Of a stretch of 64,000 nucleotides of DNA, positions 1 to 39,100 are shown one piece after another. Every line of letters begins with the position of its first letter. The stretch's first letter is position 1. The position numbers and the translations under genes were made by a program. The notes beneath the pieces are model-generated. The model was given only the letters and a program-made list of their open reading frames with translations, had not been told where the DNA came from and made no database searches. Source of the stretch: Carcharhinus amblyrhynchos (taxonomy: Eukaryota); assembly GCA_965287045.1 (NCBI GenBank), contig OZ336903.1, forward strand, positions 1,302,001 through 1,366,000. The letters are read 5' to 3'.

Positions 1-28
1 GTCAAATATTAACTTGGAGGGCGATTAC

Positions 29-61
29 CTGATGGATCAGCCTGGCTGTTTCCTGGTTTGC
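29..61 (-). CDS. Exon 2 (end of leader, (C)[10 protein letters not shown]) of a paralogous SRCR receptor gene that runs off the left edge
   Basis: 33-nt phase 1-1 exon, tttcatttcag acceptor and CAG|gtaatc donor; near-identical to 36621-36653. Confidence 0.8.
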
Positions 62-861
62 CTGAAATGAAATTTTAAAAATTAGTCTTTGCTGGAACAC
101 GAGATGAATGAAACTGTCAAATCCATACATCACAAAATCAACAGCAAGGATCTGTGTTATTTCTTCACTCTATGATTTGTAAGCACTTGCTTTTTTTAAA
201 AAAAGTTTTATTCAAATTACCACATCCGTGATATTATGACTGAATATCGCGGCCTCATTCCTTTTTTTTGAATATATGTTTTAACCACATGTTACCGTGT
301 TCCCAAACAGGGATATTTTGTGTCAGTTAAATCTCCAAATCCACGTTAGCCTCTAGTTTGCATAGTAGAATCAACAGGGCAGCGATTCCTGTCTCTGGTT
401 GGGTTGCTGAAAATTTATAACTTGATCCAGAGAGTAACCATGATAAAGTTACTCGAATATCTCTGCACCACCGTCCATAATACGGACAGTGTGTCAGTTA
501 TTTCCAATGCAGACATTTCGTAGCCATCTTTATTAAAAATTCACAAACAGTATCGCACAACATTCACTTATGTTGTAATCATTGCCAGAATTGTGGGATA
601 ACATTTCAATATTTACTCAAAATTTCACAATTTCAATGGTCCAACTGGAATTTCTGGACCCTCTTCACCCATTCCGTCTTTCTATTTTTTGCTCCACTTT
701 TCAGCGTTCAGTAATTCTCCCACTGAATCAGTGACCCATTTCAAAAACACAGAATAAAGAAAAGTACAGCGCAGAAACAGACCCTTCGGTCCATCAATCC
801 CCTGTCCATCATGATGCCCGACTATGAAAAAAAAATCATGCTGTCTTATTTCCATCTGTAT

Positions 862-1285
862 CGGGGGCTGGTGGCCGGGTTCCGCGCGCGTGGGGACGGC
901 CTCGGCTGGGGTCTTGGGTTCATGTCGCGCTGTCTGTGCCCCCCATGACTTGCCTGGGCTTGTGGGGTCTCGCTGGCTGTCCTGTCTGGGGACGGTGCAC
1001 GTCTCTTTGGCCTGTGCTTGGTGCTGTCTCCACTCACGTTGTCTGTGCCTTTGGGACTTGGGTAGCGGGTTGGCTGTGGGGGCTTGCATTCTGGTCGGTG
1101 TTCTGTGAACTGTGTGTGGCTTTGTGTCCCCTTCTCTGGCCGGGGCCTTCCGCGCGCCCGGCGGGGGAGCGGCGTTTCCGAGGGCTTGTGGGTTTGCTGT
1201 CGAGTGGACCTGTTGGACTTTGGCCTGGTCTTGTGAGACTTCTTACTGTGTTTACCCCAGTCCAACGCCAGCATCTCTACGTCAG
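862..1285 (+). mobile_element. Penelope-like element 3' fragment (GIY-YIG C-terminus and pLTR), A>G hypermutated
   Basis: 3' end matches the pLTR copies at 8248-8371 and 43960-44038; reverting G>A gives a KLIAKFRTHEDGLNRDLGFMSHY-like GIY-YIG tail (family consensus recalled, not searched); absent from the paralogous site near 37445. Confidence 0.75.
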
Positions 1286-2335
1286 ATGTGCAGGTTAGGT
1301 GGATTGGCCGCGCTAAATTGTGACTTAGTGTCCAAACACGTGTAGGTTAGATGGATTGGCCATGCTAAATTGCCCCTTAGTGTCCAAAGATGTGCAGGTT
1401 CGGTGGATTGGCTGTGCTAAATTGCCCCTTAATGTCCTGGGATGTGTCGGTTAGGTGGATTGGCCATGCTAAATTGCCCCTTAGTGTCCTGGGATGTGCA
1501 GGTTAGGTGGATTGGCCATGCTAAATTGTCCCTTAGTGTCCAAAGATGTGTAGGTTAGGTGGATTGGCCATGATAAATTGTCCTTTAGTGTCCTGGGATG
1601 TGTAGGTTAGGGTGGATTGGCCATGCTAAATTGTCCCTTAGTGTCCAAAGATGTGTAGGTTAGGTGGATTGGCCATGCTAAATTGCCCCTTAGTGTCCCA
1701 AAGATGTGTAGGTTAGGTGGATTGGCCATGCTAACTTGCCCCTTAGTGTCCAAAGATGTGTAGGTTAGGTGGATTGGCCATGCTAAATTGTCCCTTAGTG
1801 TCCGAAGATGTGTAGGTTAGGTGGATTGGCCATGCTAAATTGCCCCTTAGTGTCCCAAAGATGTGTAGGTTAGGTGGATTGGCCATGCTAAATTGTCCCT
1901 TAGTGTCCGAAGATGTGTAGGTTAGGGTGGATTGGCCATGCTAAATTGCCCCTTAGTGTCCAAAGATGTGTAGGTTAGGTGGATTGGCCATGCTAAATTG
2001 TCCCTCAGTGTCCAAAGATGTGCAGGCTAGGTGGATTGGCCATGCTAAATTGTCCCTTAGTGTCCAAAGATGTGCAGGTTCGGTGCATTGGCCATGCTAA
2101 ATTGTCCCTTAGTGTCCTGGGATGTGTAGGTTAGGTGGATTGGCCATGATAAATTGCCCCTTAGTGTCCTGGGGTGTGTAGGTTAGGTGGATTCGTCATG
2201 ATAAATTGTCCTTTCGTGCTAAGGGGATGAGCAGAGGTTAGAGGCGGGTTTAGGACCTGAGTGGGATTGTGGTTGGTGTAGACTTGATGGGCCAAATGGC
2301 CTCCTTCTGCACTGTAAGATTCTATGATTCTATCC
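1285..2335 (+). repeat. About 18 x 52-bp tandem array derived from the internal part of an HE1-type shark SINE, followed by the SINE 3' tail
   Basis: Unit gatgtgtaggttaggtggattggccatgctaaattgccccttagtgtccaaa over 1285-2215; tail ...ccttctgcactgtaagattctatgattctat; single-unit SINE at 53700-53960. Confidence 0.9.
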
Positions 2336-2529
2336 ATTTCCTCCTTATTCATGCACCCATCCAGATGCCACTTAAATGTTGCTAATGTGTCAAATTCCAT
2401 CACCTCCACTGGCAGCGCTTTCCAGGCATGCACTACATTCTGAGCTTCTTTCACACATCTTCCTTCAACTTTCCCCCTCTCACCTGAAGCCTGTGCCCCC
2501 TTTCCTCCTGCAACAGGTCACTAATGACA

Positions 2530-2945
2530 CGAACAAGCAATGGAATAGAAGGTGCTGGTCAGCAGCCTGATTTGCTGGAAATCCCAGCCATCACCTGAAT
2601 CATTTGTGTACCGTGTGGATGATACACAGCAACAAATGACCAAAACTCATTCGCAGTTCATACCAAACCCGCCATTCCTACCACCTAGAAGTACAAGGAC
2701 AGACCTACAGCAATGCCCTGAATTGCTCATTCACTTCTAAGTCGGTCAACATGCTGAGTTTGGATAATATCGGGGTTGCTTCATTCTCATGTGAACTCAA
2801 TCCCTAATCTCACTCTGCCTGCACCAGTGCATCATGTACTGCAGCCAGGCGGCAAAAAAGGCTCAGAGATCAATTCCTGATGACATCTGGGTGCAGACAA
2901 TAAATGCTGCCATTGCCAGGGACGTTGACTTCACAAGAATTTGCA
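2530..2945 (+). mobile_element. Degenerate LINE 3' fragment (paralogous copy about 37660-38060)
   Basis: Resembles a common elasmobranch LINE 3' end (...ccaaacccg...ctaccacctagaag...caataaatgctg). Confidence 0.5.
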
Positions 2946-5019
2946 TAATAATAACAAGAGTGTAAAGGCCTTGGCTGAATGTGGGGTATTAACATTTTTT
3001 TTGAAACAGATACAGAGACATGGAAATTTTGCTACTTTAAGATGTAGGTCCATTTAAAGACAACAACACTCCATTAGCATAAAACAGTAAGGCAGCAAAT
3101 GCATCACCCCGTGACCGACAATTCCATCGATCAATAATATTTTAACTTAAACTATGAGACCTAACACGTAATAAATAAATGTCGATGTAATGAGTGGAAT
3201 TAATTAGATAACATCGTATTCGGAGTTGGAAACCACCGTTAAACACTGGGACCGTGTAGCTCGCAGCAGGAAGGACAGATTATGAGTCGCTAGTGGAAGT
3301 ATAATTTTCAAATGTATGGTCACACCAAATTAACACTTGTAAGATATCACATTTAGAATGTAAGCGGACACTTATCCAATCTTTGCGAGACAGGGTGATA
3401 TTTTTCTGGGGTCTGGAGGCCGAAGCTAACGGTACAAAATGGCTCAAAACATTTTACAAGGAAACGGTGGAGTTTGTCAATCTAGAATGAGTGACGAGTT
3501 TTCATAGCTCAGTATAAAGAACAGAAAGTTGAGTGGATACTGAGAGTGTCTGGGAAGAGGGTGATAAGGATCCAGTGATTGATACACAAAGCTGATATTA
3601 GCGTATGGTTTAGAAAGCTTTGTTGTGATTTCTAAAGCTCATTGTTCCAAATAGCAATCAGAAAATCTAATGCTGCCAATTTGCGGAAGAAGACGGATTT
3701 TTAATTTCCCTATTATTTCGCCGCTGCAACTGATATGAAGTATATTGGTTAATATGCCAGTTAAAGCAATGTTTGTCCCACTTAGATTTTAACTTTTCGA
3801 TATTTACAGCCGTGAACACTACTCCAACTCAAAATTTTTTGTTTAACATATGGCAGTTCACTGTCCCACAGGACGACCACACAGCTCCTCCACTGAGAAA
3901 TATCTATCCCAAATCTGCGTACGGATTCTATTGATAGTAACTATAAATTTTACTGGGATTCTGCAAGCGGTTAATTCACGTAGATTGCATTCGGCAATCT
4001 CTGCTATTCAGACAGTGGCGGCGATCTACACCCAGACTGCGCCGTTCAGCTAGAATTTCAATTCATGTCTGTTCCATCTGTACAACAGACCAAGTGCACT
4101 ATTTAATTCTATCTGCTGCCGTATCTGAGTTAGATTACGTGGTAAATCTAAATTTCTTATTCATTTGCTGCTTTGTGGAGACGAATGAACTAAAAATGCA
4201 AATTTGCTCAAAGCATATTCCAATGAGTTTCTACAAGTTAAGCCAACGATTCCAACTCTCACTTCATAACTGCGAGCTAACGGGCGATTCAGTAGCAACA
4301 AAACGTCAAATTTTAATGAGATGGGTTTATTGGGCCTAGGATTTATTACATTGCAACATTACATTTGTTTCTTTTAGAAGACATGTTCCTTCAAGCAAGT
4401 GCAAAGTCCAAAAAGTTTTTTTTTTCAGATTTTATTTCGCGGACTCTCGGTCCTTTCCTGTGTGAAGTGTTTGATAACAGGAATGGGGCAACTTTCTATC
4501 AGTTAACCAACATTTTCAGTGAAATTCGGACTAATGAATATAACCAAAGAGGCACGTTGGGAACCGAGAGAAAATGAACCAACTGAACAACTTAAACAAC
4601 AACCAAGTCAACAACTTAAATCGGAACAAAACTACTTGGCCTGTGGAAGGAGATGAAAGAACATGTCTCGAACTGCCACAGAAAACGGCATGAGAAACAG
4701 AGAACATGAAACCCTGGCATACCTCTTGAGAAATAAAAATAATTAAAACCTGAAACAAATAACTGCATAGAAATATTAATTTAACACATTCTGGTAATAT
4801 TCCGGGAGGAGACATGAGGCAGTTGGGCAACACAGGTCAGCAGGCAAATCATGCATATTTAGCAAATTATATTATCAACATAACAAGATCTGTATTTTCT
4901 TCATATTAATGAAATTAATTAATGCCACAGACCTAGCCCAACACTCTGAAGCTGAGGCACCGATTTTAAACAATTTGTTTGTTTTATCTCTGCACGGGGT
5001 TCAGACGGAAAATGTAATG

Positions 5020-5360
5020 AGAAATAGAACACAGAACAGAGAACATTACAGTACAGGCCCTTCGGCCTTCGATGTTGTGCCGATCAGTGGAACCAATCTA
5101 ATGACCCTCTAACCTCAACTATTCCAATGTTATCCATATGCCTATCCACTGACCATTTGAACGCCCTTAAAGTTGGCGAGTCCACAACTGCTGCAGGCAG
5201 GGCATTCCACGTCCCTACTACCCTCTGAGCACAGAACCTACCTCTGACAACCGTCCGATAATTACCAACCCTCAATTTAATGCTATGTCCCCTCGTGTTA
5301 GTCATCACCATCCGAGGAAAAAGGCTCTCACTGTCCACCTTATCCCATCCTCTGATTAAG
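5020..5360 (-). mobile_element. CR1 LINE 3' end, specific to copy 1
   Basis: ORF 5084-5338 has TRGHSIKL...RVVGTWNALP...AFKWSVDRHM (CR1 ORF2 C-terminus); absent near 40150 in the paralog. Confidence 0.85.
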
Positions 5361-6351
5361 GTCAGATTACAATATCAAGAGAAGCATGGATGAATGGTCA
5401 TCGCCAAAATTCCTGCATTTTTAAACATAGTGAGTTGGCTTCCACTCAAACTCATTTTCAGCAGATTCTAACAGCCACTGCTCTCACTTGTACCAACACA
5501 AATCAAGTAGTCCAAATAGAGGTTTTACAGTAAAATGTTGCCATGCGCGCGTAAAGCATTTCCATTCAATTTTGTGTTTAAATCTCAGCTTGCCTTAAGT
5601 CTCGGCCGAGAAATTAATACATGCATTAATCAGGTGTTCTAAAGTCTAAATACATTTGAAAGGAAATAAGTTATAAAAAGAATCAGGGAATCTAAATTAT
5701 TCACCAACTGAAACTTCCTTTCCTTAAAATCCTAATTCCAATACACACTCATAACAACGAAGGATGTATTTGAATATGCAAGAGCCTTTTCCCTAACTGG
5801 AGCGGAGAATCCAAAACATTGCTGGAAAAAAAAATATAAGCTTCCAGATTTTGATTTGATCGTCCATTTTGATTTTCAACTCCAATTTATTGATTCTGCA
5901 CACCAATGTCAGGTAGACGGCGATCAAAAACAATTTTCATTGGACCTTTGTGGCCTCAGAGCAATATTCGGCAGAAGTGTTAGGCCCCTGGTCCAAACTG
6001 ACTGTGCCGGGTGGAATAAAACCAGTTCAGTCTAACCCCACTAGCCTGTTCTTGGCTCCTTTGTGCGTTACAATACTTCAGACGCAGAAGCAAGTATGTT
6101 TTCAATGTGCTGAGCACTTCTTCATCCTCCAGCTTTTCAGACACTGAACTCGCCTCCTCTCATTGTAAATTGATGTACATTAATATCCTATTACCTCCAG
6201 ATGACACTTATTATTCAAATTATCAACTTTCCCTTACATCAGTCACCAACATTTTTATTATGAAAGCTCAATATATCTGCAAATATGTTAACATTTTATG
6301 TCAATGAATTATCAATAGACATCGGGATACTTTCAATCAATAATAACTCAC

Positions 6352-6397
6352 AGTTGAGAAGCTGCAATGCAATTAGAGTCAGGAAGGAGCGCAGCAT
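6352..6397 (-). CDS. Exon 1 (signal peptide [15 protein letters not shown]) of the paralogous SRCR receptor gene
   Basis: ATG at 6397, 46 nt, T|gtgagt donor; identical to 41157-41202; joins in frame to 29-61. Confidence 0.8.
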
Positions 6398-6650
6398 CGT
6401 CCCGACTGTCGGTTACTGCGATCAGAATTGACTATTCACCGAGTTTTGTACACCGGTACCGGGCTGTCCTTCCAACACTTGCTGGAACACCAAACGCTCC
6501 AGGAATGAATTCTTTGTTCAGGAAATAATGTTTCCTCCCCTCTGACCAATTGATCCTCCCATGTGTGAAATGGTATTTGCGGTTGATAAAAGATACCAAT
6601 GACAGTTCTATCCACCTCCTTGCCCTGTGCGGCTAATGAGGCCTACATTT

Positions 6651-6670
6651 TTGATAAGGAAATGAGTCAC
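6651..6670. promoter_or_regulatory. Candidate GATA/ETS/AP-1 composite site about 260 bp upstream of SRCR exon 1
   Basis: tgataa-ggaa-atgagtca; conserved at 41458-41476. Confidence 0.35.
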
Positions 6671-7929
6671 TAACCCAGCATCGGATTATCGAATCATCAT
6701 ATCTTACAGCACAGACACAGACGAGTGTAGGAAATGCAATTGGTAAATGTTTGTAAATCATATTAAGCCTGGCTTGGACTGGATTATTTAGAATTATTTT
6801 TGTTCTGTTTTACCACTTACGGGCAATTTCCGAGGAAGAGTTGAAGGCCGTGGAGAGAATTAGGGTTAAAATTCCCAGGTTAAACCTGGGACTGCTGTGA
6901 TGTGGAGAAATTGCATAAATTGCATGTCAGATCCTGTCACTTTCCTCAAGAAATCTGTGAGTGAGGGTTCTCACCGACAAGTCCAATCCAATCGGCTGTT
7001 TAAGGCTCCTACAGAGCCCGAATACAGCCTGTATTCACAACCTGATTTTCACATCTTCACAAAGGAAAAGTGAAGGGATTTCACTCCAACAGTAACTCAA
7101 GCAAGAAGTTCAAATCTGTAACATCTAGAATTTTTTTTTCCCCGAGTGAAAACAGACCTTTTGCTCCTTGCTCTGAGAACAACCTCCAAAGTTTTTACTG
7201 TCTTCTATTCAGAGAACAATATTCTCGAAATACAGAAAGCCTAATTCATGTATAATTTTAATATGTAGCACCTCTATACGGAAATCTTAGATACAATGCT
7301 TCTGTTAAAAGACTGTTATTCTCTATTGGGACATAATTACTTTTTAAACATACTTTAGAAGCACCATTACATATCTGAGCGATTTTGCTGCCTCCGCCCA
7401 GTTTAGAGTGACAGAGTTCGGCGGGACTGTGCCGTTCAGAAATATTTCTTATCTGTTGGACAAATGTAATTTTATTTTCATGATCAAATTGACAGTTATT
7501 TGAGTGAATGTCTTTACAGGGCCGCGTTTAGAGAAGGGAGGCCCACGGACATATTTGTTCCATACAGGAAGAAATGATTCCTGAGAAGCTGAGCAATTGG
7601 TGTTGAGTTATACTCTGTCACCCCGAAGCAGCTCACTGTCTGTTCAGAATCAGGACATTCGCTGCGCGTTTTCCTGTGTTGCTGAACAGACAGGAAACAC
7701 CTGGCCTTGTGGTCAGGTCTCTGCTCGCATGTTAGTCGCTGCTAGACTTTAACATTGACAGATTGCAATTGGGCATTCGAACATGGGACATGTAAAACTT
7801 TAAGTACATTCATGAATTCACCAGCAGCATATGACAGAATGGCATCAACAAATACTCCTGATTATCCGGGGCCTCCAGGAATTGAATGTCGCTGAACATT
7901 TTGACATTTCAGTTGTGTTCAAATGCCTG

Positions 7930-9375
7930 ACTGGCTCAATCTGCCTATTAACATTCAGTGCCACAGGCCTGGCCACTTTCACTGTGTCCTTTGAGATTCA
8001 GTGTCTCAGGCTTGGCTGAGGTCACTCTGTTCTTTCAGATTCAGTGTCACATTTCTGGCTGCATTTGAACTGTTGTTTGAAATTCAAGATCTCTGTCCTT
8101 TGAGACTGAGTGTCACAGTCCTGCGCTGTTCACTCTTCCTTTCAGTTTTAGTGTCACAGGTCTGGCTGGGTTTACTGTGTCCTTTGAGATTCATTGTCAC
8201 AGGCCTGGCTGGGTTCATTCTGTCATTTGAAATTCAATGTCACTGGCCTGACGAAGGGGTGAACCCCAAAAACTTGTGGGTTTACTATCAAATAACTGGT
8301 TGGACTTTAACCTGGTGTTGTGAGACTTCTTACTGTGTTCACCCCAGTTCAACACTGGCATTTCCACATCACAGATTCACTCTGTCCATTGAGATTCAGT
8401 GTCACGGGCCTGGCTGGATACACTGAGTTCTTTGAGATTCCTTGTCACAGCCCTGCCGGGGTTCACTCTGTCATTTGAGATTCAGAGACCTGGCTGGGTT
8501 GGAACTGTTATTTGAGATTCAACGCCTGAGGTCTGACTGGGGTCACTCTGTCCTTTCAGATTCAGTGTCACAATCTTGGTATCCTTTCAGTCTGAGTGTC
8601 ACAGGCCTGGCTGGATTCACTCTGTCCTTTGAAATTCAGTTTCACAGACCTGGCTGTGTCTAATCTGTCCTTTGAGATTCAATGTCACAGACAAAATTGG
8701 GTTCAATGCATACTTACATATTCGGTGTCACAGACCTGGCTGCATACACTGTGTCCTTTGAAATTGAGTGTCACAGGCCTGGCTGGGTTCATCTGTTATT
8801 TGAGATTCAGTGTCACAGGCCTGACTAATTCACACTGTCTTTCACAAACAGTGTCACAGGCCTGTCTGGATTTGTTCTGTGCTTTGGGATTCAGTGTCAG
8901 AGGCGTGTCTGAGTTTACTTTGCCCTTTCAGATTCAATGTCAGAGGCCTGGCTTTGTTGGAACTGTTATTCAAGATTCAAGCTCTGAGGCCTGGCAGAGT
9001 TCACATCTACCCTATGAGATCCTACCTCACAGGCCTGGCTGTGTTCACTCTGTCCTTTCAGATTTGGTGTCTCAGGCGTGGCTGGGTTGGAACTGTTTTT
9101 TAAGTTTCATTGTCTAAGGCCTCACTATGTTCACTCTGTCCCTTTGAGATTCTGTGTCACAGGCCTGGTTGGAGTCACACTGTCCTTTAAGATTCAGTGT
9201 CAAAGACGTTGCTAGGTTCACTCTGTACTTTGAGATATAGAATCACATTCCTGGCAGGGCTCACTGTGCTCTGTGAAATTCAGTGTCACAGGCCTGGCTG
9301 CATTCTCGCTGTTCTTTCAGACACAGTGTCATAGGCCTGGCTGGGTTCAATTGTTGTTGAGTTTCAGTGTCCTAA
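7930..9375. repeat. 43-bp minisatellite (roughly 30 degenerate units)
   Basis: Unit gagattcagtgtcacaggcctggctgggttcactctgtccttt; interrupted by a Penelope pLTR at 8248-8371. Confidence 0.9.
8248..8371 (+). mobile_element. Penelope-like pLTR fragment with a degenerate hammerhead-like core
   Basis: ctgacga-aggggtgaacccc-aaaa ... gttggactttaacctggtgttgtgagacttcttactgtg. Confidence 0.65.
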
Positions 9376-9379
9376 CATT

Positions 9380-10560
9380 GGCTGGAGATGGAGGGAGTGA
9401 GGTGGCTAATTGAGTGCAGTGAGGCAGCATCAACTGTAGATGGAGACAGTCAGGGACTAGTTCAGTTCAGTGAGATAGCATCACCAGCAGATGGGCAGAG
9501 TGAGGGGAAACTGAGTGCATTGCAGCAGCACCACCAGCAGATTGGGACAGTGAGTATTCTCACTGGGTGCAATAAGTCAAAGATACCAGGAGATGGAGAC
9601 AGAGAGGAGGTAACTGAGAGGACATGGACAGATTGCTGGAAAGAATGATTGTTGATTTGTTGATCGCAGTGAGGATAATAACAGTGTTTGGGGGACACAG
9701 AGAGATGAATGAAAAGTAGAAGACTGAGGAGAACAGCAGGATGTTACAGGACACAGGTGGATTGGTGAGACATAGTTAGCAGTATGGATAAAAGCAGGGC
9801 TTGGGATGCCAGACAGATTGCTGAAATGTAGTAAATAATGATGATTATCATCAAATTTGGGAGGACACAGAGAGATGGGAGAAAGGCAATAGCAGTGAGA
9901 GTGAGAACAGGAATTGGCAGGACACAGGTAGAATGGTAAAATGTTGTAATGAGTGGGGATAAAGCTAGGAATCTGGAAGGCAGTCAGTTTCCTTTAACGC
10001 AACAAAGAATCAGGATAACAAGAACATTTGTTTGGACAGGTAGACTGGGAAGTGCAATAATCATGGACAATATAGGCAGGATTTGGGAGCAGACAGCCAA
10101 TTGTAATTATCACTAAATAATTTTGTTAGCACGCCGACGGAATGGTGAAGGATTGCAAATGTTGGGGATATATCCAGGATTTCTGTGGACACTGACTGAT
10201 TGCTGTAAAGCAGTTAGAAGTGAGAACATCAGCAGGCTTCTGGAGAACACGGATTAGTGTCGAAATGTTGTAAACAGTGTGGGCAACAGTAGGTTTCAGG
10301 GGGATACAGACAGAATGGTGAAATGTAGTAAACAGTGTGGGTAACAGCAATGTTTTGGAGAACACACACGGATGGGTGAAGTATTGCAAAGAGTGATGGT
10401 AGAGGCAAGATTTAGTAAGCAATGGCAGATTGGTGTAATATAATAAAGAGTGAGGAAAACAACAGGGTTTGGAAGGATGCAGCAAATGGATGAAGTGTGT
10501 TAATCTGTCCGGATAGCAGAGGATTTGTGTCTCTGGGGTAGTGCTGGAATGAAGCATGGT
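9380..10560. repeat. Degenerate purine-rich minisatellites (about 45-55-bp units)
   Basis: Repeated tgagtgcagtgagacagcatcaccagcagatggagac and gaggataacagcaggatttgggaggacacagacagattggtgaaatg motifs; paralog at 45620-46990. Confidence 0.65.
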
Positions 10561-10659
10561 GCTGAATTGAGTAGTTGGGGAAATACGGTTGTGAATGTGA
10601 CGATCCAGAGCATAAAAAAGGAACAGAAATGTATCAAACCGTGTATCTAACTGTCATAA

Positions 10660-11061
10660 TCTTTATTTAATAGTATAAGAATGGAAGCTGCTACAAAATG
10701 GAATTCGAATAGATGTGACAATAATAAGCACCCAATTTTGAATTGTAGTCCCGGCTCTGCTCCATAATGTGATGTGATATAAGAGCTTTAATATGGACAG
10801 TGAAATACCGGATATACATTCTGTTCTGTTTCTCATCGAACAGGATGCAGACTCACTCAAACTGAGAAGAATTTGCAAATTCATAAAAAAAAGAAGGAAT
10901 GAGCGACTGATTCAGAAACTACAATACCGATACCTGGAGTTGAAGGACATTCCACACAGTGATATTTGTGGAAAAGTTAAGGGATCTCCCCTTTGATGTA
11001 ATGCAGAGTCATATATCTGAAGACACCACATCCTGGATTTGGATTTGTTGATGACTATTGC
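10660..11061 (-). pseudogene. Orphan SRCR-gene terminal exon ((G)NSHQQIQIQDVVSSDI*) with 3'UTR and polyA signal
   Basis: Homologous to 20763-21166 including the tttcag acceptor, TGA and AATAAA (+ strand tttatt near 10662); no upstream exons found before the gap. Confidence 0.6.
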
Positions 11062-12635
11062 CTGAAACTATAAAATAAATAGAGTGAGAATTACAACAAA
11101 TCCCACATCCAGCTAAACGCATCACATGTGCTGTATTTTATTTTACAATATTCCAGTCCAACCAGCTGTTTATTTCTCTCTAAAACACACTGCACCTTCT
11201 CTCTGATCCTTTCATTGTAATTCACCACTGGAAATACTGCAGGGTTTGGATCTTGCTGGATGGTAAGGAGATGATAAGGTGAGTTTTGGACAGCTACATT
11301 TCTAGCGGCAGCGATTGGGAAATGTTAGGATGGTGTGGAAATTCCTGGGACGTGAGAGATGACGAGACTGTGCCCATTTCCTCTTAATCTTCAAGAGGCA
11401 AAATTCCAAGTTCCGGGAGTTAAAATCCCGCTCATTGAGATCGCGCTTTGACCATATTGTAGATCAGAATTTAAGCAAAGATATATGTTTTATTTTAAGC
11501 CCTCTTCAATAGAGCATTTGGTGAACAGTTAGAAATGTAGCAGGTTTGGAGAAAGGGGTGGCTGGGACAAGGACGAAGGGAAGGTCTGTGGTAGACATGA
11601 GAGTTTGAATGAGAGAAAAGTGAATCCCCCCCAGAGCCAAAGGGAATGGAGATGGAGAAAAAAAAACAAATGAACAGAAACTGGGCCTGGAGCAGGGGCG
11701 GTGCTGAAACAAAATGGACTCACAGTTTACTTTCTCAAACTGTTTGACTGGATATTAAGTCCAGAAAGCTGTCAGGTGTGGAGGGTTTGGGTAAGTGGGA
11801 GGATTTCCCCTGGACCTGCTCCAGGCCCTGGTTTAAACTGTCATCTGTAGATCCAGGATGGGTGTGGCTGGCGGGGGAGGCAGGGTTCCCTCTGGCTGAT
11901 CTGCAGTGGTCTTGTCAGTGCCCAGTTCGATCTGATCTGTGCAGCCCAACACACTGGAAAATGCGTGAAAGGAAATGAAGATTAGAAATCTAACTAATGT
12001 GTCAACTCCTTCAGAGGGTCACACACTGTATTCTGACAAAGTGAACTGGATTACACTGAATGGGAAGTCATGTAATGTAACCCTCACAGGCTTCATGAAT
12101 GAAGTACATTTTTTTCGGGGGGTGGGGGGGTGGGGGGGATTAGCTTCAGACTCCAGCCTGGTTGTTTCAATAAACAGGAGCTGATGTCTATCTGTGTGTA
12201 TGTGTGTCTGTTTCCCTGGGTACGGTTCCCTGAGAGTTTAAAATTCTGCATCTCTCTCTCCCTCTCTCTCTGTGGAGCTGCTGGTTAAAGACACATTGAC
12301 AATATTTATCTGACAGAAACTCCCCTCCCCCATTCAGTGCTTCTGATTTCAAAAACGTTTAGACGTTTTTTTGCAGCTCTGATCTGTGGTGACTCAATAA
12401 ACATTAAGCAGAGAGCACACACATTCACACAAATAGACAGGAAACAACAGAGATTGGCTTGGAAATAAGAAGTGTAAATATAAATGCAGCAACAAAGAAC
12501 TTTGCAAGAAAGTATTTGAGTTCAGGCAACTTAAGCAAAACGTGAACTTTGCAAGAATCAGCAAAACCTGAAGCCGCTGGAATGCTGGATGAGCAAGTTA
12601 TACAATCCACAGTCAGACCTGATCTCTCTCTGGAC

Positions 12636-12845
12636 AGTAAGAAATCTCACAACACCAGGTTAAATTCCAACAGGTTATTTGGTGGGAAAAGCCACTAGCT
12701 TTCGGACCACTGCTTCTTGGTCAGGTGAATGGATTTCAGTTCCCAAACACGGCATATAAAGGCACAAACTCAATTTATAAACTGATGTTGTGAAACGTCT
12801 CACTGTGTTTACCCCAGTCTAACGCCGACACCTCCACATCACCAC
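12636..12845. mobile_element. Penelope-like pLTR in inverted arrangement, specific to copy 1
   Basis: Reverse-complement pLTR at 12636-12780 followed by a forward pLTR end (...ccccagtctaacgccgacacctccacatca); absent near 48960. Confidence 0.65.
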
Positions 12846-12908
12846 ATCATCTCTGTCTGGGCAGGGCTGCTGGTTACTTTCAATCCATTTTCCCCTCATC
12901 CCCGAGTG

Positions 12909-12909
12909 A

Positions 12910-12978
<69 letters not shown>

Positions 12979-12999
12979 GACAGAGAGAGGTAGAGAGAG
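12909..12999. repeat. (GA)n/(GACA)n microsatellite
   Basis: Read directly from the sequence. Confidence 0.95.
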
Positions 13000-13244
13000 A
13001 GCCTTGGGATAAACAATTTGCCTGGTGCTCAGCAACGCACATAGACACAGCACCCCCACCCCCAACCCCTCAGAGACAGGTTGGTGTTGGACTGGGCTTT
13101 ACCTGAAGTAGGTGGGCTCAGGTGAGATGCAGGAGATGTGGTTGGATGGGGGTTGATTGGGGAGTTGTGGGCAGTTAGTGTGATTCAGTGAGGGTATAAA
13201 AAGTCTGGGGATCAATTGTTCTGTTTCTGTGCACATGAGTTGAT

Positions 13245-13385
13245 NNNNNNNNNNNNNNNNNNNNNNNNNNNNNNNNNNNNNNNNNNNNNNNNNNNNNNNN
13301 NNNNNNNNNNNNNNNNNNNNNNNNNNNNNNNNNNNNNNNNNNNNNNNNNNNNNNNNNNNNNNNNNNNNNNNNNNNNNNNNNNNNN
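13245..13385. other. Assembly gap
   Basis: N run. Confidence 1.
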
Positions 13386-14991
13386 CTTTTTACCCACCAC
13401 ATAGCCCCTAGCCCTGGAACTCTCTCCCCCACAAGCAGGACTCTGGGACTGAGAACAAGCCTTACCCCAGGCTCAGGAATTTGAATTTCAGCTCCCTCTC
13501 CCTCCCGGTGCTTTACAGTGAGATGGAGAAAGAGAGACTGGGAATGCCACAGTCAGGTTCCACAGGGAATCCAACACTGCAAGAGGACACACCCGACACT
13601 CAGGGCCTCTGTCTCTTTCCCCCATCATCTCCCCGAGCCCCTGACGTTCCCCAACCGTTCTCTGTTCAAACTGTCAAATGTGATTGATCTATAATGGAAC
13701 CAATACATCCATCGAGGATTCCACGAGATATTTTGAACCATCAGTGATTCTTTTAGGCACAATTTGCAACCCAATTGCTCTGATATTGCTCATTGTGCAA
13801 TTAACTTTGCGACAATGCATCAATGATTCAATGAAGAGAGTGTCAACGCCTGTTGTGAGCGGAAGCAGATATGTCTAATTTGAAATAATAACCTATTGAA
13901 GGCCCAACAAGGAGAATACAACAGGTGCAGAACCGTGAAGGAAGTCTAAAATAATCAACGCAAATCATTGCCAATGATACCAGATTCGATCTATGTTTTG
14001 CAGTGCAGACTCACCTCAAAATGAGTAAGGGTTGGCAATTCAACAATTATTTGGGGGAGGAGGCTCCACACTGGTGTGACAGGCCCGCATGTGAATATAA
14101 TGGAGGAGGCTAAATCATCGCAGATAATCTACAGGCAGAAATGTTGGTTTGATGTTTCACATTTGTTTCATGGGTTCAGCATGCCAGACTTCAGCCATTT
14201 TACACCCGTCCACGTGATATCAAGGAGCGACTGAAGGTGCTGGAAAATGATCAGTCATTAATGCAGATTATCCAAAGCCAATAGTGTGGAGTTTGTGTCG
14301 TTTTCACACAGACAGCTGATCCCACAGATCACAGATAAGAGGGCTCATTTCTGGCAGTTAGCTAAAGTTCAACAGGCAGGGAAGCGGCAGGGCACCAGGC
14401 ACCAGAGGCAAATATTCAACACATTACCAACTGCTGCATTCAGAATTATTGAAACATCTGGATTGAAAGAGAATTTTGCATGATGAGGACAGAGAGAGTT
14501 GATATCAGAGTAAGGTAGTGACTTGGGTGAGGGAAGAAGGAAACACATATGATGGAACGCAGGAAAATAGGGAGATAGAAAAATAACAAAAAAAAACTGA
14601 ACGTAGGCAGGGTAGTCAAGAATGGGGAAATGGAACAATTAGAGATATGTAAGGGCACAAATGATAAAAACTGACGACTTTAATTTATATAACGCCTTTT
14701 ACACACTCAGAATATCCCACAGAGAATCATTGCCAATGCTAAAACTGCCATCAATGAAATAAGATACAAAGTGTTGCAGTGAATACAGCACAAACAAGAA
14801 TGGCACGTATTACAAACTATCCGGGTATTTAATCTTTTCCAGTGAGTTTGTCAGTGAATAGCGATGTCTTAGCATAACGATTCCTCACAGCAGACACACA
14901 ATATGTTGGAGAGCGGAAGATTAAACAACCACTACAACAATGACAGAAATAAGAGGCAGAGTAACCAGTGGACAAGTTAACCTTACAAATT

Positions 14992-15208
14992 ATTTGCATT
15001 TTATTATGAATCTCCGGTTGAATCATTTACCCGATTTTTTTTTTAAGTTTGTGATCAGTAACCTGCAGAAGAGAACACATTTAACACATTTAATCTCTGA
15101 TCACAGGAACTGTTTGTCTGTGCGCTGTTCTTCAGTAAGAAGCAACTTGGAGCGAAACCCCACATTATGTGAGTGAACAGCTTAATATTTAACACGTCTC
15201 AATATAAA
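14992..15208 (+). promoter_or_regulatory. Defensin-like gene A promoter: octamer ATTTGCAT (14992) and TATAAA (15203)
   Basis: Both motifs are conserved upstream of all three copies (56088/56289; 58643/58845); TATA lies 48 nt before the ATG. Confidence 0.55.
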
Positions 15209-15250
15209 GAACTCCCACACTCAAGTCGTCTCATTGCAACTTATTGGAAA

Positions 15251-16281
15251 ATGGGGAAAGTGCTGTGCATAATATTTGGTGTCTTGCTGCTGGTGCAGGA
15301 AAGTGCTGTCCAAGAAGCCCGCGTCTACGCTCTTGAAGAAGACGGTCAGTATATCTCATGGTTGCCAAAATACGGATGTTCCTACTCTGCATTGTAACGC
15401 GCTTTTTTTAATACAACTTTCTATCACTCGTATCTATCACTGGTTTGGATCTCAGATCTGGCAAATGTCACCGCTTTATTCCTGCCAAAATCTGAATGAT
15501 TTAAGTTTAAATTCAAACAATGTTCTTCAGCTTTATTTTTGTCGTCCGTCCTATTCCCATACACATCCCCCCCACCCACCCGCCCCTCCTCCCCCCTTCC
15601 CCCCCACCCACCCGCCTCTCCTCGCGCCCCCCCCCCCCCTCCCCCACCCTCCTCCACAATCTTCACATCTTTATCTCCTAAAAGGTTACCAGGCACAAAA
15701 TTTTCACAGAACTCTGCTCTCCAAAAATAATCAGCCGAATCTCATCACTTCCTCCAAGGCGAACTTACTTTCTCCAGTTCCCTCACTGCTCCTCACTGAT
15801 ACTTGATTTCAAATCTTATCACATAATTATTCCAAAGTGCATTATTATAAGAAAGTCACTAATAAATCTAATCAGGTGTACAAACGAAAAATAAATAAAT
15901 ATAAAGTGAACGGAATTTTTAACTCACTGACACCAGCAATGATTTTTTTTTTGAACAATGAATGTAAACGTTAGAGGAAGCTCGTTTAGCACTTGAAGGA
16001 GAAAGATAATTTTGTAAGATTGTATTTTTACAACCGCCCTCAACTGCATGTAACAAAACCGCCTCGGATTGCTGATGTTCTCATGTCTACCGTCTATTTC
16101 ATCACCCATAAATGCAGACCAAATATTCCTCTTTTGTTTTGTTTCAGAGGCGAGGTTCAGATGCAGAATACTTGGAGGGGTCTGCCGATATGGAAGCTGC
16201 GCACCGGACCGGGTTCTTCCGGTTTCTAATCTGTGTTGGTATGGCCAACACTGCTGCGCGGATCCAGCACTTTTGCAATGA
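15251..16281 (+). CDS. Beta-defensin-like gene A, join(15251..15344,16148..16281), 75 aa
   Basis: MGKVLCIIFGVLLLVQESAVQEARVYALEED|EARFRCRILGGVCRYGSCAPDRVLPVSNLCWYGQHCCADPALLQ*; G|gtcagt donor, ttttgtttcag acceptor, phase-1 intron, C-x6-C-x4-C-x11-C-x5-CC, AATAAA at 16385. Confidence 0.85.
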
Positions 16282-16489
16282 AATATTTGAATTGTAATCG
16301 TTTCCTTAGCAGCCAGCTTCAAATCGGCCGTCCTTTCATTGTGGCTGCAACAGATCTCTGCATTTCAGAATTATAAAATATATCAATAAAACTCACTGGA
16401 CTGATCACCGATTATTGTGCAGATCTGGTTTCTCATCCGGTTTCTATATTCCTGCATTAACACAAAGGGAAAATATATCAGAAAATGTC

Positions 16490-18300
16490 ACACTGGGGAC
16501 ATAGATTCATTCAGTGAAGAAACGGCCTTCAGGCGACCACTTCTGCTCCATAAATATCGATCACTAATGGCAAAGTAAACATATTTCTCTGTACTTATCC
16601 CATATTATTGAATAGTAAAACAATTCAAGCCCATTCAAATCCGTTTTAAGCTTGGAAATGTTATGACCTTGCCGACCTTCCCAGGCAGTTTATTCTAATT
16701 TCACATTACATTTTGAGTGAAGAAGTTGCCTTTTCTCAAATCTCATCTGAGTCTCGTGGCCCTCATCCTAAAAGTATGCGCCTTCATTATTCACCCCTCA
16801 ACCAAGGGAACCGGTGTTTTTTCATTCATCCTCTCTATACCCCTATAATCCTATCACCTAAACCATGCCTCCCTGAAAGTTATTTGCTCTAAACAAAGGA
16901 ATATAGAAAACAGAAGCAAGAATTATCAATTTGGTATTTTGAACCTATCCTCCCAATCATCTTGATCACGGCTGTTCATCAAGTTCAATATCCTGACCCC
17001 CACCCTCCCTACTATATCCATTGAGCCCGTGAGATCAAGAGGTACACCAAATTTATTATTCAAAACACACAACTGTTGGGCCCGACTACTTTTGTAGTAG
17101 TAAATTTCATCGGCTCGTCACTGGCTCTGGTCGATTATTTTCAGCTCACCTCAGTTCTAAAAGTTTTATCCTTTCTCTGAAAATTACGTAACCATTTTTC
17201 GACATCCAACCAATTGGAACATTCTTTGTGATTCTGCCCTGTCCAATCCCGTTGGAATTTTATGCGTTTCTACAAATCTCCCCTCACTCTGCTAACCACC
17301 AGTAAAAACAATCCTCACCGAGGAGTATCTTCTCATATGACAGACCTGCCATCCCAGGAACCAGCCTGGTAAACCTTCGCCGTACTCCCTCTATATCAAG
17401 GGCATCGTTCCTCAGGTAAGGATACCGAATTCAGGATATGGCCTCAAAAATGCCCTGCACAATGTTAATGAAATATCCCCATTGTTATACTCAAATCCTC
17501 TTGCTATTAAGTCCAACATACCATTTTCCTCTGTTACTGTCTGCTGTAGCTGCGAGCTTCCGTTCAGATAAATAATTTAAAGACAATGAAATTCAATCCT
17601 TTTAAAAAAAAAACAAGCAATGCCAACTCACTTGTTCAAATGCTCCATCCCAGGCAGCATTCTGGTAAATGTCCTCTCTACAGCCTCCAGTGTTACCACA
17701 TATTTCCGGGAGTGAGGTGACCAGAATTGCACACAGTATTCCAGCTCTCATTCGCCATTCCCTCATTTTGTTTCTCCTCCAACAGTGATCTTGTCACACT
17801 GATCAGAGAGAAATCAATCTGTCACTGCTCTGCCATTCTAACCATCCAATCATTATCAGCTTTTAATCAATAAACACTCTCCAAAGCATAGTGTCATCTG
17901 CAAACGTGTTAATTGTTCTCCCGTACCACATTACTATCCATGTTGCTATGAATATAATAAACTAGAAACGTTCCAGTGCTGATCATTATAACTTTGGATA
18001 CCGGAATGCCGTCCATCGAACAGCCTCACACCATAATACTTTGAGTCCCAATAGTAAGCCAGTTTCTAATCCAGCTCGCCAAGTTTCCCCAAATTACACT
18101 GGCTTTAGCCTTTTCAATCAATCTCCCAAGTCGGAACTTGACAAATATTTTGCAAAGATCCACAAAACTATAAGAACTGAACTTCCCTTGACCACACACA
18201 AAAAAAAATCGACCAAAATTGTTCGGCATGACATCCATCTGACAAAACCATACTGGATATTTATTATTAACTGATGTACTTCCAACTGAATATTCATCTT
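16490..18300 (-). mobile_element. Nested degenerate CR1 LINE fragments (paralog about 60090-61830)
   Basis: RT-like text in ORF 18026-18238 (VDLCKIFVKFRLGRLIEK...LASWIRNWL) and typical CR1 3' sequences. Confidence 0.7.
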
Positions 18301-18479
18301 TTAAACAAAGCGCATTTTGGAAGTTCGAAATGACAGAACTCTTAGAAACATTAACAGATTAAACCGGGACTGCAAGCCAACAGTTTCCTGAAAGTGGCAG
18401 CAGGAGAGGGGCACTTGGCCAAGAAAATGCGTGTCATGCCAGCCTTTATCTGTCGGTGTCTGGAGTATAAGAATTTTGC

Positions 18480-19010
18480 AGCTAGTTTGAACTTTAATCA
18501 GATAGGGAACACAGAGTACAGTTCTGTTTGGCACACGATAGGATGTGATGGATCTGGATAGGGTACAGAAAACATTTAACAGTTATCTGCTTTGGATGGT
18601 GTTAGCTGCGAGGAGAGTTTGGGCAGAGATTGTTCGATTTCACTTGAACTTTGGAGAATTGGGTATCTGATCGAACTTTGCAAAATGAAGAGAGTCGTGG
18701 ATAAAATGGACAGTCGAACTCGTTTTCCAGGGGGAAAGAAAAAACGCCAATTATTAGGGTACCAAAGTTGAAGGCGAAATGGTGAATGCTTGAAGGAAAT
18801 GTAACAGGTAATTTCATTACACGGGGGAGGGGGAGAGGGTAGGTTCTTGAATGTATGGTCAGTGGAGGTTGTAGGAACAGATTCAATAACAACGTTTAAC
18901 AGGAGTATTGACGGTTACATGAATAGAACAAAGAACAAAAACAGCCCGGGAAAGAGGCTCTTCGGCCCAACGATCCCTTGGCGCCATTTTAACATGGCCA
19001 GTCCCCCCTT
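18480..19010 (+). mobile_element. Degenerate CR1 LINE 3' fragment (paralog about 62000-62540)
   Basis: gagtacagttctg...gggtacagaaaacatttaac...ctcgttttccaggg CR1 signature. Confidence 0.65.
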
Positions 19011-19199
19011 CATCCATGACCCATGATCGGGTGTTCCGGTTTCCTCCCATATTAAGACGTGCGGTTTCGATGCATTGACCTGGACAGGCGCCCCACTGTG
19101 GCGATGAGAGGGATTTCACAGTAACTTCATCAATCAATAAACTGAACTAATGTGTTAAAGATGTTTATTTTTCGAGGTGCGAGAATTATTGGCAAATTG

Positions 19200-36100: not shown

Positions 36101-39100
36101 CAACTCAGGACTGTTATGGCCTGCGGTCCACCATACTGCCTGGACTAATATATTGGAATCCCAATCCGAGCATGGATTCGATATCTGCCACCAGTGTCAA
36201 ACCAGGTGTTTCACCCTGCTGCAACCGGCTGAATTGGACAGTCAGGGAGTCTCCAGACCTTCCCGGGGCTGAGATGCGGCGAGTTTTCGGCGGGACCCGA
36301 ATATACCGCTGGTCAAACGGCTCGACATTGCACTGCATTTCAGAGCTGGCTGGTAACTAGAGAAGTAAAAATTTATTTCCAAACGGCAGTGGGGAATCTT
36401 TGCCTCTCACCCTGCTCCTCGGGGATCTAATTTCTAAATTAGGGAGCAGAATTAAACATTTACGTGAAAACATTGCAAGAACATTTTCCTTCACAGCTGA
36501 CAGGCAGACATTGAACCGAATCATTGAATACAAAGATACTGAAATTTTCCCAGGGATTTATCATTCAGTTGGATGGATTAGTGCAGTGAAATATCAGATA
36601 TGAACTTGGAGGGCGATTACCTGATGGATCAGCCTGGCTGTTCCCTGGTCTGCCTGAAATGAAATTTTGAAAATTAGTCTTTGCTGGAACACGAGATGAA
36701 TGAAACTGCAAAAACCATACATCACAAAGTCAACACCGAGGATTTGTGTTATTCCTTCACTATACGATTTCCAAGCATTTGCTGTTGAAAAGATTTTTTT
36801 TCAAATTACCACACCCGTGATACTGTGGCCTATGAATATCCTGGTCTCATTCCATTTTTTGAATACGTTTTTAACCACGTGTAACCGTGTTCCCAAAGAG
36901 GGATATTTTGTGTCAGTCAAATCTCCAAATCCACTTTAGCCTCTAGTTTGCATAATAAAATCAACAGGGCAGCGATTCTTGTCTCCCGTTGGATTGCTGA
37001 AATTTATAACTTGATCCATAGAGTAACAATGATAAAGTTACTCGAATATCTCTGCACCACCGTCCACAATACGGACAGTGCGTCATTTATTTCCAATGCA
37101 GACAATCCTCAGCTACCCTTATTAACTCTTCACAAACAATATCGCACGACTTCCACTTATGTTGTTCTCATTGCCAGAATTGTGGGATAACATTTCAATA
37201 TTTACTCAAAATGTTGACAATTTCTATGGTCCAGCTGGAATCTCTGACCCTCTTCACCCATTCCGTCTGCCTATCTCTGGCTCCACTTTTCAGCGTTCAG
37301 TAATTCTCCCACTGAATCAGTGACCCATTTCAAAAATACAGAACAAGGAAAAGTACATCACGGAAGTAGACCCTTCGGTCCTTCAATCCCCTGTCCATCA
37401 TGGTGTCCATTTAAGCAAAAAAAAGTTGCGCTATTTCCGTCCCTATCCTTCTATTTCCTCCTTATTCTTGTTTCCATCCAGATGCCTCTTAAAATGTTTC
37501 TCATGTGCCTGCTTCCATCACCTCCTCTGGCAGCGCCTTGCAGGCACGCACTACTTTCTGCACTTTTCCCACACATCTTACTTTAAATTTCCCCTCTCAC
37601 CTTAAACCTGTGGCCCCTTTTCTTCCTGCAAAAGATCACTAATAACACTAACAAGCAATGAAATAGAAGGCGCTGGTCAGCAGCCTCATTTGCGATAAAA
37701 AAAAAACCGCCCTCACCTGAATCATTAGTGTACCGTGTAGATGATACACAACAACAAATGGCCAAGACTCATTCGGCAGTTCTTTCCAAACCCGCGATTT
37801 CTACCATCAAGAAATACGAGGACAGACCCACGACAACACCCTGAATTGTACATTCCCTTCTAAGCCGGACAACATGCTGAGTTCGGACGATATCGGGGTT
37901 GCTTCATCCTCGTGAGCGCTCAATCCCTACTGTCACTACGCTTGCACCAGTACATCATGTACTGCAGCCCGGCAGCAAAAAAGGCTCAGAGATCAATTTC
38001 TGAAGACATCTGGGTACAGATAATAAATGCTGCCACTGCCAGGGACACTGACTTCACAGAGGTAGCATAATAATAAAAAAAATACAAGGCCGTGGCTGAA
38101 TGTGGAATATTAACTTTATTTGAAAGAGATATAGAGACATGGGAAGTTTGGTACTGTAAAATGTAGGCCCATTTAAAGATCACAAAACGCCATTAGCACA
38201 AAGCAGTAAGGCGGCAAATATGTCTCCCCATGACTGAGTATTCGATCTGTTAATCATGTTTTATCTTAAACTAAGAGACACAACAAGTAACAAAGAAATG
38301 TCAGTATTACGAGTGGAATTAATTACAAAACATCGTATTTGTAGTTGAAAACCACCGTTAAACACTGGAACCGTTTAGTTGACAGCAGGAAGGACAGATT
38401 GCGACTCGCTCGTGGAACCATAACTTTGAAATGTATGGCCGTACCAAACGAACACTTGCCTGATATAAAATATTAGATTTAGAATATAAGCGGACACTTA
38501 GCAACTCTTTTCTAGACAGTGCTTATTTTTTTTCCACTGTGGTCTGAAAAATGGTTCAAAACATTTTACAAGTAACTGTTGGCTACGCCAATCTGGAATG
38601 GGTAACTTGTTTTCATAGCTCATTATTAACAATAGAAAGCACAATGGATATTGAGAGTGTCTGGGAAGAGGCTGACAAGTATCCAGTCATTGAAATAATA
38701 AACTGATGTTAATGTCTGGTCAGAAAGTTTTGTTTTGATTTCAAACGCTCATTTTTCCAAATGACAACCAGAAATACTCATGCTGCAAATTCGCAGAAGA
38801 AGTCGGATTTTTCACTTCCCTATTATTTCGCTGGTGCGAATGATATTAAATATATTGATTAATATGTCAGTTAAAGCAATGTTGGTCCCACTTCGATTTA
38901 ATATTTAACTTTTCAGTGTTTATAAACATGTCAATTTCTCCAACTCAAAATAATTTGTTTAACATATGACAGCTCACTGTACCACAGGACGAGCATACAG
39001 CTCCTCCACTGAGAAATATCTATCCCAAATCTGTGTACGCATTCTATTGAAAGGAACTAGAACTTTTACTGGGATTCTGCAAGCGGTTAATTCACGTAGC

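Follow-up and report, generated by a model that had tools for sequence, protein, structure and literature searches.

The window analyzed here (the whole stretch of 64,000 nucleotides from Carcharhinus amblyrhynchos, contig OZ336903.1) contains near its start a Penelope-like piece so poor in A that it raises the question of whether an RNA edited by ADAR was reverse transcribed into heritable DNA. Only 14 A are found between 901 and 1200, preceded by C (6), G (6), T (1), and A (1), exactly as counted in the original prediction; one of the survivors preceded by G, at 1108, had A as its ancestral 5′ neighbor. The only other 300-nt stretches of the window with at most 20 A belong to a simple repeat near 50.7 kb that is rich in pyrimidines. 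The comparison copies first used, pLTR copies of the window, align only to 1185–1284 or less, and one parent string quoted with them is absent letter for letter from the window. The claim that A>G dominates the change holds against the true relatives. In columns where the unedited locus L015 and the family majority agree, 74 of the 93 ancestral A in 862–1225 have become G, and the other changes amount to 3 in 342 columns (C>T, A>C, and T>C, one each). Of 41 genome-search matches, 30 were compared, and most of these differ from the window by 61–81 A>G and by little else. As T>C is found at 1 of 100 sites and G>A at 0 of 62, the change affects one strand only, and G>A on the sense strand, by which APOBEC DNA-edited retroelements are recognized, is lacking in the insert. 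Background A>G in unedited arms is 249/7333 (3.4%), the highest single arm reaching 8.7%. The last edited A is at 1223, and none of the 10 A in 1226–1284 is changed (Fisher P = 8e-7 versus 862–1225), in agreement with the abrupt stop predicted near 1225.

Such a stretch might stem from a base-calling or assembly artifact or from a high-copy G-rich subfamily, the more so as many G sites are common to the edited copies, which retrieve each other in searches. The G's are present in short-read contigs of three samples, which cover parts of 756–1056: runs X1 (756–937 and 909–1031) and X2 (829–937 and 908–1031) have 0 differences to the window, and run X5, from a different study, has 1 (915–1056); no contig piece was listed for 1057–1225. 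The assembly itself could derive from the sample of X1 or of X2, but these runs still stand for two samples. Contigs also match the edited inverted arm of another locus, L115: the matches of 368 and 373 nt are identical to it, and that of 226 nt has 1 difference. When the A columns are masked in a tree of 80 arms, each of six edited arms groups at a different place among unedited relatives, and the window's 10 other changes are shared with unedited L004 (8) and unedited L015 (7) but not with edited L002 (0). The G's can be shared between edited copies without common descent because site-specific editing levels agree between arms: sites surviving as A in the window are less edited in seven other arms too (0.34 versus 0.63, P = 0.0007). 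Artifact and subfamily are refuted by the contigs, the masked tree, and the sharing with L004 and L015, and their residual probability is negligible. The A>G insert is real, heritable, and recurrent. It had been described as fixed in the germline; heritable it is, "fixed" meaning here presence in three samples.

Extent and composition of the insertion

The insert had been placed at 862–1225, with Penelope as the retrotransposed unit. It actually extends to 2333, and the unit is a SINE ending in a CR1-like tail at that position, with Penelope as cargo (Table 1). The whole of 862–2333 is colinear with the direct arm, then the array, then the SINE end of L015; the SINE end (2219–2333) differs from it by A>G at 1 of 33 sites. 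Absence from the paralog, also claimed in the original prediction, is borne out.

Table 1. Features of the insertion and of its empty site, in window coordinates
Feature	Position	Strand	Evidence
Whole insertion: 5′-truncated retrocopy of composite SINE with a Penelope-like hairpin	862..2333	+	Empty in paralog; colinear with L015
Hyper-edited part of Penelope-like 3′ arm; pairs with inverted arm in source	862..1225	+	74/93 A>G; L015 predicted fold
Recoded 3′ end of RT/GIY-YIG ORF (~25 codons), without its stop codon	862..939	+	Intact ORF end in L098, L056
Hammerhead-like pLTR core (our assignment): A6, A9, A14, A15.1 read G; U4C common to unedited L015	1158..1183	+	Column counts
Former AATAAA, three A's changed; putative polyA signal	1203..1208	+	Site table
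Base of predicted stem, 3 A's unedited (0/3)	1226..1246	+	Fold and counts
Penelope "tail," outside stem, 0/7 A edited	1247..1284	+	Counts
52-bp tandem array of SINE internal segment, 17.9 copies, without A>G excess	1285..2218	+	
SINE 3′ end, with a terminal motif like that of CR1 and a short repeat as tail; reverse transcription likely began here	2219..2333	+	
4-nt sequence repeated at 2331–2334: short target-site duplication or microhomology	859..862	+	Seen directly
Empty site in tandem-duplicated paralog	37424..37452	+	Without arm and SINE together

The Penelope-like family is, to judge from its translations and by the criteria in the available text of PMC8557442, an EN+ element of Neptune type. 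Locus L098 (271–2043) contains an uninterrupted ORF of 591 codons, the product of which matches RVT_1 above the cut-off (E = 7e-9) and GIY-YIG below it (E = 0.001), with the motif visible. The CX2-5CxxC linker between RT and EN is seen in family translations, and the family shows inverted 5′-truncated copies and a tail of 30–40 nt; Pfam gave no match for three partial ORFs. The stretch at 1158–1183 is what we take to be a hammerhead core, the motif and the position numbering being our own assignment. This core-like motif is the family majority, and Rfam gives no hammerhead at the gathering score in 13 sources nor in E-value scans of two pLTR stretches. A tail of 30–40 bp is described for Penelope-like elements in the accessible parts of two reports (PMC8557442; PMC11167929), the second of which also describes the Penelope tail and hammerhead.

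Editing was predicted to have destroyed the polyA signal, the hammerhead core, and the GIY-YIG tail. The A's in all three are indeed changed, but no working function is shown to be lost, because the fragment is already 5′-truncated and noncoding and because U4 is already C in unedited L015. Across the 363 nt with A>G changes the count of CpG rises from 6 to 26. Between 682 and 1346 there are three overlapping stop-free frames of 156–186 codons, their stops removed by editing, with no sign of use.

The SINE, presumably V-SINE HE1, has a putative tRNA-like head in which motifs resembling the A and B boxes can be recognized by eye, on the A/B box consensus, at L015 1233–1300. Its 3′ end aligns with five 3′ ends that we take to be of CR1 type.

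Source locus, predicted hairpin, and sister copies

At L015 an unedited, full-length SINE carries a Penelope-like element inserted head to head inside its tandem array, and both the inverted arm (1501–2306) and the direct arm (2306–2849) are unedited. The predicted fold of the whole RNA has 510 arm-to-arm pairs, in a stem that ends at the window equivalent of 1246. Predicted pairing takes in 355 of the 363 bases equivalent to 862–1225 and 20 of the 21 equivalent to 1226–1246. Outside the stem, 6 of the 38 tail bases pair and none of the 522 farther on. Editing in the window ends ~20 nt short of the predicted stem base.

The arm-to-array junction and the array variants are common to four unrelated sites (the window, L015, L060, and L062). 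L062 begins at the window equivalent of ~1203, with 4 of its 8 A's changed, and L060 begins at 1226; hence the three copies (window, L062, and L060) all break off within or at the predicted stem. A junction deletion of 8 nt is common to the window and L060 and is found neither in L015 nor in L062, which leaves direct parentage by L015 unproven; the true master may be another locus, to which L015 is a sister. Junction searches for a second full-length composite returned only L015 among the 40 candidates scored per search. Ten more array-to-Penelope junction matches (L180–L189) probably represent separate insertion events in the array of the same SINE.

These data suggest the following route. 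An RNA read across the L015 insertion would fold into a stem of ~510 pairs, and ADAR would deaminate most of the A's of this stem and none outside it. Reverse transcription would then start at the CR1-like tail of the SINE, read inosine as G, and stop inside the stem at 862. The resulting copy lies at a new site, and its two sister copies end at the stem base or just inside. That an ADAR-edited hairpin RNA was retrocopied in this way via the SINE tail is, in our judgment, probable, and if a variant with two rounds of editing (see following) is included, it becomes highly probable.

The composite at L015 starts, in the region 484–1233, at a 5′ splice-site-like junction after an exon of ~250 codons on the same strand, for which there is no match in Pfam or among the solved structures of the PDB. 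The RNA of L015 could be a Pol II intron or a Pol III transcript (it has one U4 run).

Edited loci elsewhere in the genome

Five targeted searches give at least 17 edited loci, including the window, L062, and the weak L008, plus one complex multi-arm locus; weak T>C flags at L165, L169, L170, and L177 are left out of this count. The unedited 19-mer of the Penelope family has 43,705 exact copies in the genome, and the event of editing and copying is therefore rare. Among the 29 matches of a 19-mer probe with AA>GG, only the window, L062, L115, L126, and the complex locus L133/L134 are clearly edited. The latter (L204:3908–5739) is a nested Penelope palindrome of seven arms, some of which are partly A>G and some partly T>C.

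The junction search provides a second pair of source and copy, the unedited hairpin L215 and the edited copy L002, which are 635 kb apart. Here A>G affects 153 of 258 sites inside the stem and 2 of 92 outside, and the homology ends at a CR1-type tail. In four other loci both arms are edited on one DNA strand, i.e., the direct arm as A>G and the inverted arm as T>C in the Penelope sense: L115 (53/126 and 56/109, respectively), L149 (110/180 and 77/135), L151 (25/81 and 24/55), and L152 (83/258 and 89/133). Unpaired parts are spared from change in L115 and L152. The highest edited arms outside the window reach ~60%, versus 80% in the window.

Four loci do not fit a simple retrocopy of a hairpin. 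In L158 (L199:2467–5819) and L173 (L200:4481–5992) only the 5′ inverted arm is edited (T>C in the Penelope sense at 28/59 and 69/184 sites), the adjoining direct arm being unchanged. A captured 2-kb piece in L158 is flanked by two unedited arms truncated at one and the same point, which suggests template switching. In L027 (L036:5591–6270) both arms are A>G in the Penelope sense and have 9 edited sites in common, of 15 and 11, so that it looks like a Penelope double insertion from one edited template. L148 (L198:4488–5155) has an edited direct arm within a CR1-type copy, and the inverted arm present there does not overlap it, leaving no pairing partner in view. For these four loci a different route is required, e.g., template switching or copying by Penelope.

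A piece of LINE or SINE on the same strand lies within 600 nt downstream of 9 of 16 edited loci (0 on the opposite strand) versus 22 of 92 controls (19 on the opposite strand; P = 0.015). This comparison leaves out L062 (the same composite as the window), the multi-arm L133/L134, and the short and ambiguous L117, L124, L128, and L129, and uses a carrier library partly taken from the flanks of edited loci, with self-hits excluded. No carrier match is found at 7 of the 16. The sequence after L149 resembles CR1 by eye, which we take as a provisional label. CR1-type machinery is the probable carrier. It seems likely that Penelope copies inserted head to head in SINEs and CR1 LINEs make their own ADAR substrates, and that their edited RNA has been written into the germline time and again by CR1 machinery, leaving a datable fossil record of single molecules from germline ADAR activity in which source and product are found in one genome.

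Editing enzyme, alternatives, and known systems

The insert shows clustered A>G on one strand, confinement to a predicted long double-stranded RNA, and a preference for 5′ U or A with disfavor of G, as is typical of ADAR. By ancestral 5′ neighbor, the edited fraction is 21/22 after T, 23/27 after A, 18/24 after C, and 11/18 after G (T+A versus C+G, P = 0.018). The pooled preferences are alike in 10 sense arms (T 0.81, A 0.73, C 0.46, G 0.40) and in six antisense arms (T 0.78, A 0.64, C 0.44, G 0.47), the chi-square P values of 8e-27 and 3e-9 being overstated, as the arms share homologous sites. Exons for the A_deamin domain, which also covers ADAT and ADAD, lie on six contigs of the genome. 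Hence ADAR is the probable editing enzyme, and the central claim of the original prediction, ADAR-type A-to-I editing of a retroelement RNA followed by reverse transcription into heritable DNA, is supported by the contigs, the spectrum of changes, and the tree. In vitro, ADAR reaches a plateau at ~50–60% of the A's; the 80% at 862–1225 is high and counts against the ADAR-edited hairpin. For comparison, a frog hairpin with 65 of its 77 A's edited is described in the available text of PMC5625713. Depletion of 5′ G is given as the signature of ADAR in the sections available of PMC4365171 and PMC5625713, the latter also stating that the preference for 3′ G differs between lineages. As for the 3′ neighbor here, the window has 15/16 edited before G, and the pooled arms show no 3′-G preference (G 0.58 versus A 0.69).

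The high level of editing in the window might be explained by two rounds: a full-length retrocopy that was already edited, and could still pair by way of G-U, would have given rise to a transcript that was edited and copied once more. The junction deletion common to the window and L060 likewise points to a master other than L015. No such master appears, however, when the 40 candidates of each junction search are scored, and other edited arms already reach ~60%, so that a second round is doubtful. A different possibility is that the reverse transcriptase of Penelope itself copied edited Penelope RNA and that the product landed beside a SINE. L027, with both arms A>G in the Penelope sense, indicates that such a route may exist. 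Sense-strand A>G alone is no proof of self-copying, because a head-to-head pair ends with a sense arm either way. At the window locus this reading is contradicted by the shared composite junction, i.e., the same arm-to-array junction and array variants at four unrelated sites, as well as by an empty site that lacks arm and SINE together; we consider it very unlikely. Equally improbable is a process at the level of DNA or of reverse transcription, be it ADAR acting on the DNA of a hybrid, TA-specific hypermutation, GC-biased conversion, or errors from dNTP imbalance. DNA editing by ADAR is possible in model hybrids, according to the part of PMC12925331 available, and L158 and L173 have a single arm changed. 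But deamination of cDNA predicts T>C in the RNA sense, which is seen at 1 of 100 sites, all four 5′ contexts are affected, on one strand only, and neither T>C nor A>C is in excess. Moreover, the changes track the stem, and no editing is seen at the source loci. An ADAR-edited hairpin RNA copied via the SINE tail accordingly stays the preferred reading.

The closest parallel in genomes is given by the APOBEC "DNA-edited" retroelements, which share with the present loci a clustered one-strand deaminase footprint, heritability via retrotransposition, and the pairing of source and copy (PMC4866542, in the text available). These are G>A changes in LTR elements, made via the cDNA, whereas here the changes are A>G, at the RNA level, in non-LTR elements, and confined to a stem. 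Such G>A fossils are described in the accessible parts of PMC4866542 and PMC2873906; the screen of the former took in LTR elements and found other types of cluster negligible. In the A-to-G hypermutation of avian RAV/ALV an edited RNA is also reverse transcribed, with ~50% of A's changed and in one case an inverted repeat (PMC12925331, in part). That system is retroviral, whereas here germline nonviral composites are affected at ~17 loci, two of them with source loci in the same genome. An endogenous mouse virus has an excess of A>G in a context that does not fit ADAR (PMC12548423). Hyper-editing of inverted-repeat RNA resembles the present case in its long duplexes, its 5′-G depletion, and Penelope as a major target, and has been described in Penelope RNA of a lizard, Harbinger of a frog, and elephant shark brain; in the available text of these reports it is known in RNA only (PMC4365171; PMC5625713), and here it is written into DNA. 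The family shares with the Neptune-type EN+ elements the RT, the CX2-5CxxC linker, the C-terminal GIY-YIG, the pLTR, the inverted 5′-truncated copy, and the tail (PMC8557442, in part), with the difference that here the arm is moved as cargo by the 3′ end of another element. V-SINE HE1 of sharks and rays, with its partner LINE HER1, has the same LINE-like 3′ end and tRNA-like head boxes that the box-like motifs at L015 may match (PMC3747384, in part). The SINE of the window, which we presume to bear that name, differs in that its array is expanded and that it carries a Penelope hairpin of 1.35 kb.

A literature search, which included few subscription papers and no supplements, yielded nothing on non-LTR copies edited by ADAR and fixed in a germline; A>G clusters may be tabulated in the supplements of PMC4866542. 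According to the part available of a 2016 review, the role of ADAR in retroelement evolution "has not yet been determined" (PMC4982230), and restriction of L1 by ADAR is reported as independent of deamination in the accessible text of PMC8535693. The pairs of source and copy with stem-limited A>G indicate that changes of the A-to-I type reach heritable DNA and that a heavily edited hairpin RNA remains retrotransposable. Each copy would be the record of one RNA molecule, so that neighbor preference, extent, and truncation points could be compared across species. Such copies would also distort repeat dating and subfamily calls. If the proposed route is true, RNA editing is a way to new heritable DNA that is rich in CpG and poor in stops.

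The window itself contains a tandem duplication of ~36.6 kb (2–19022 versus 36594–62564) and, at 28105–35866 on the minus strand, a cluster of exons that we take to be SRCR-like. Relative to a paralogous exon, the insertion is antisense and ~2 kb upstream.
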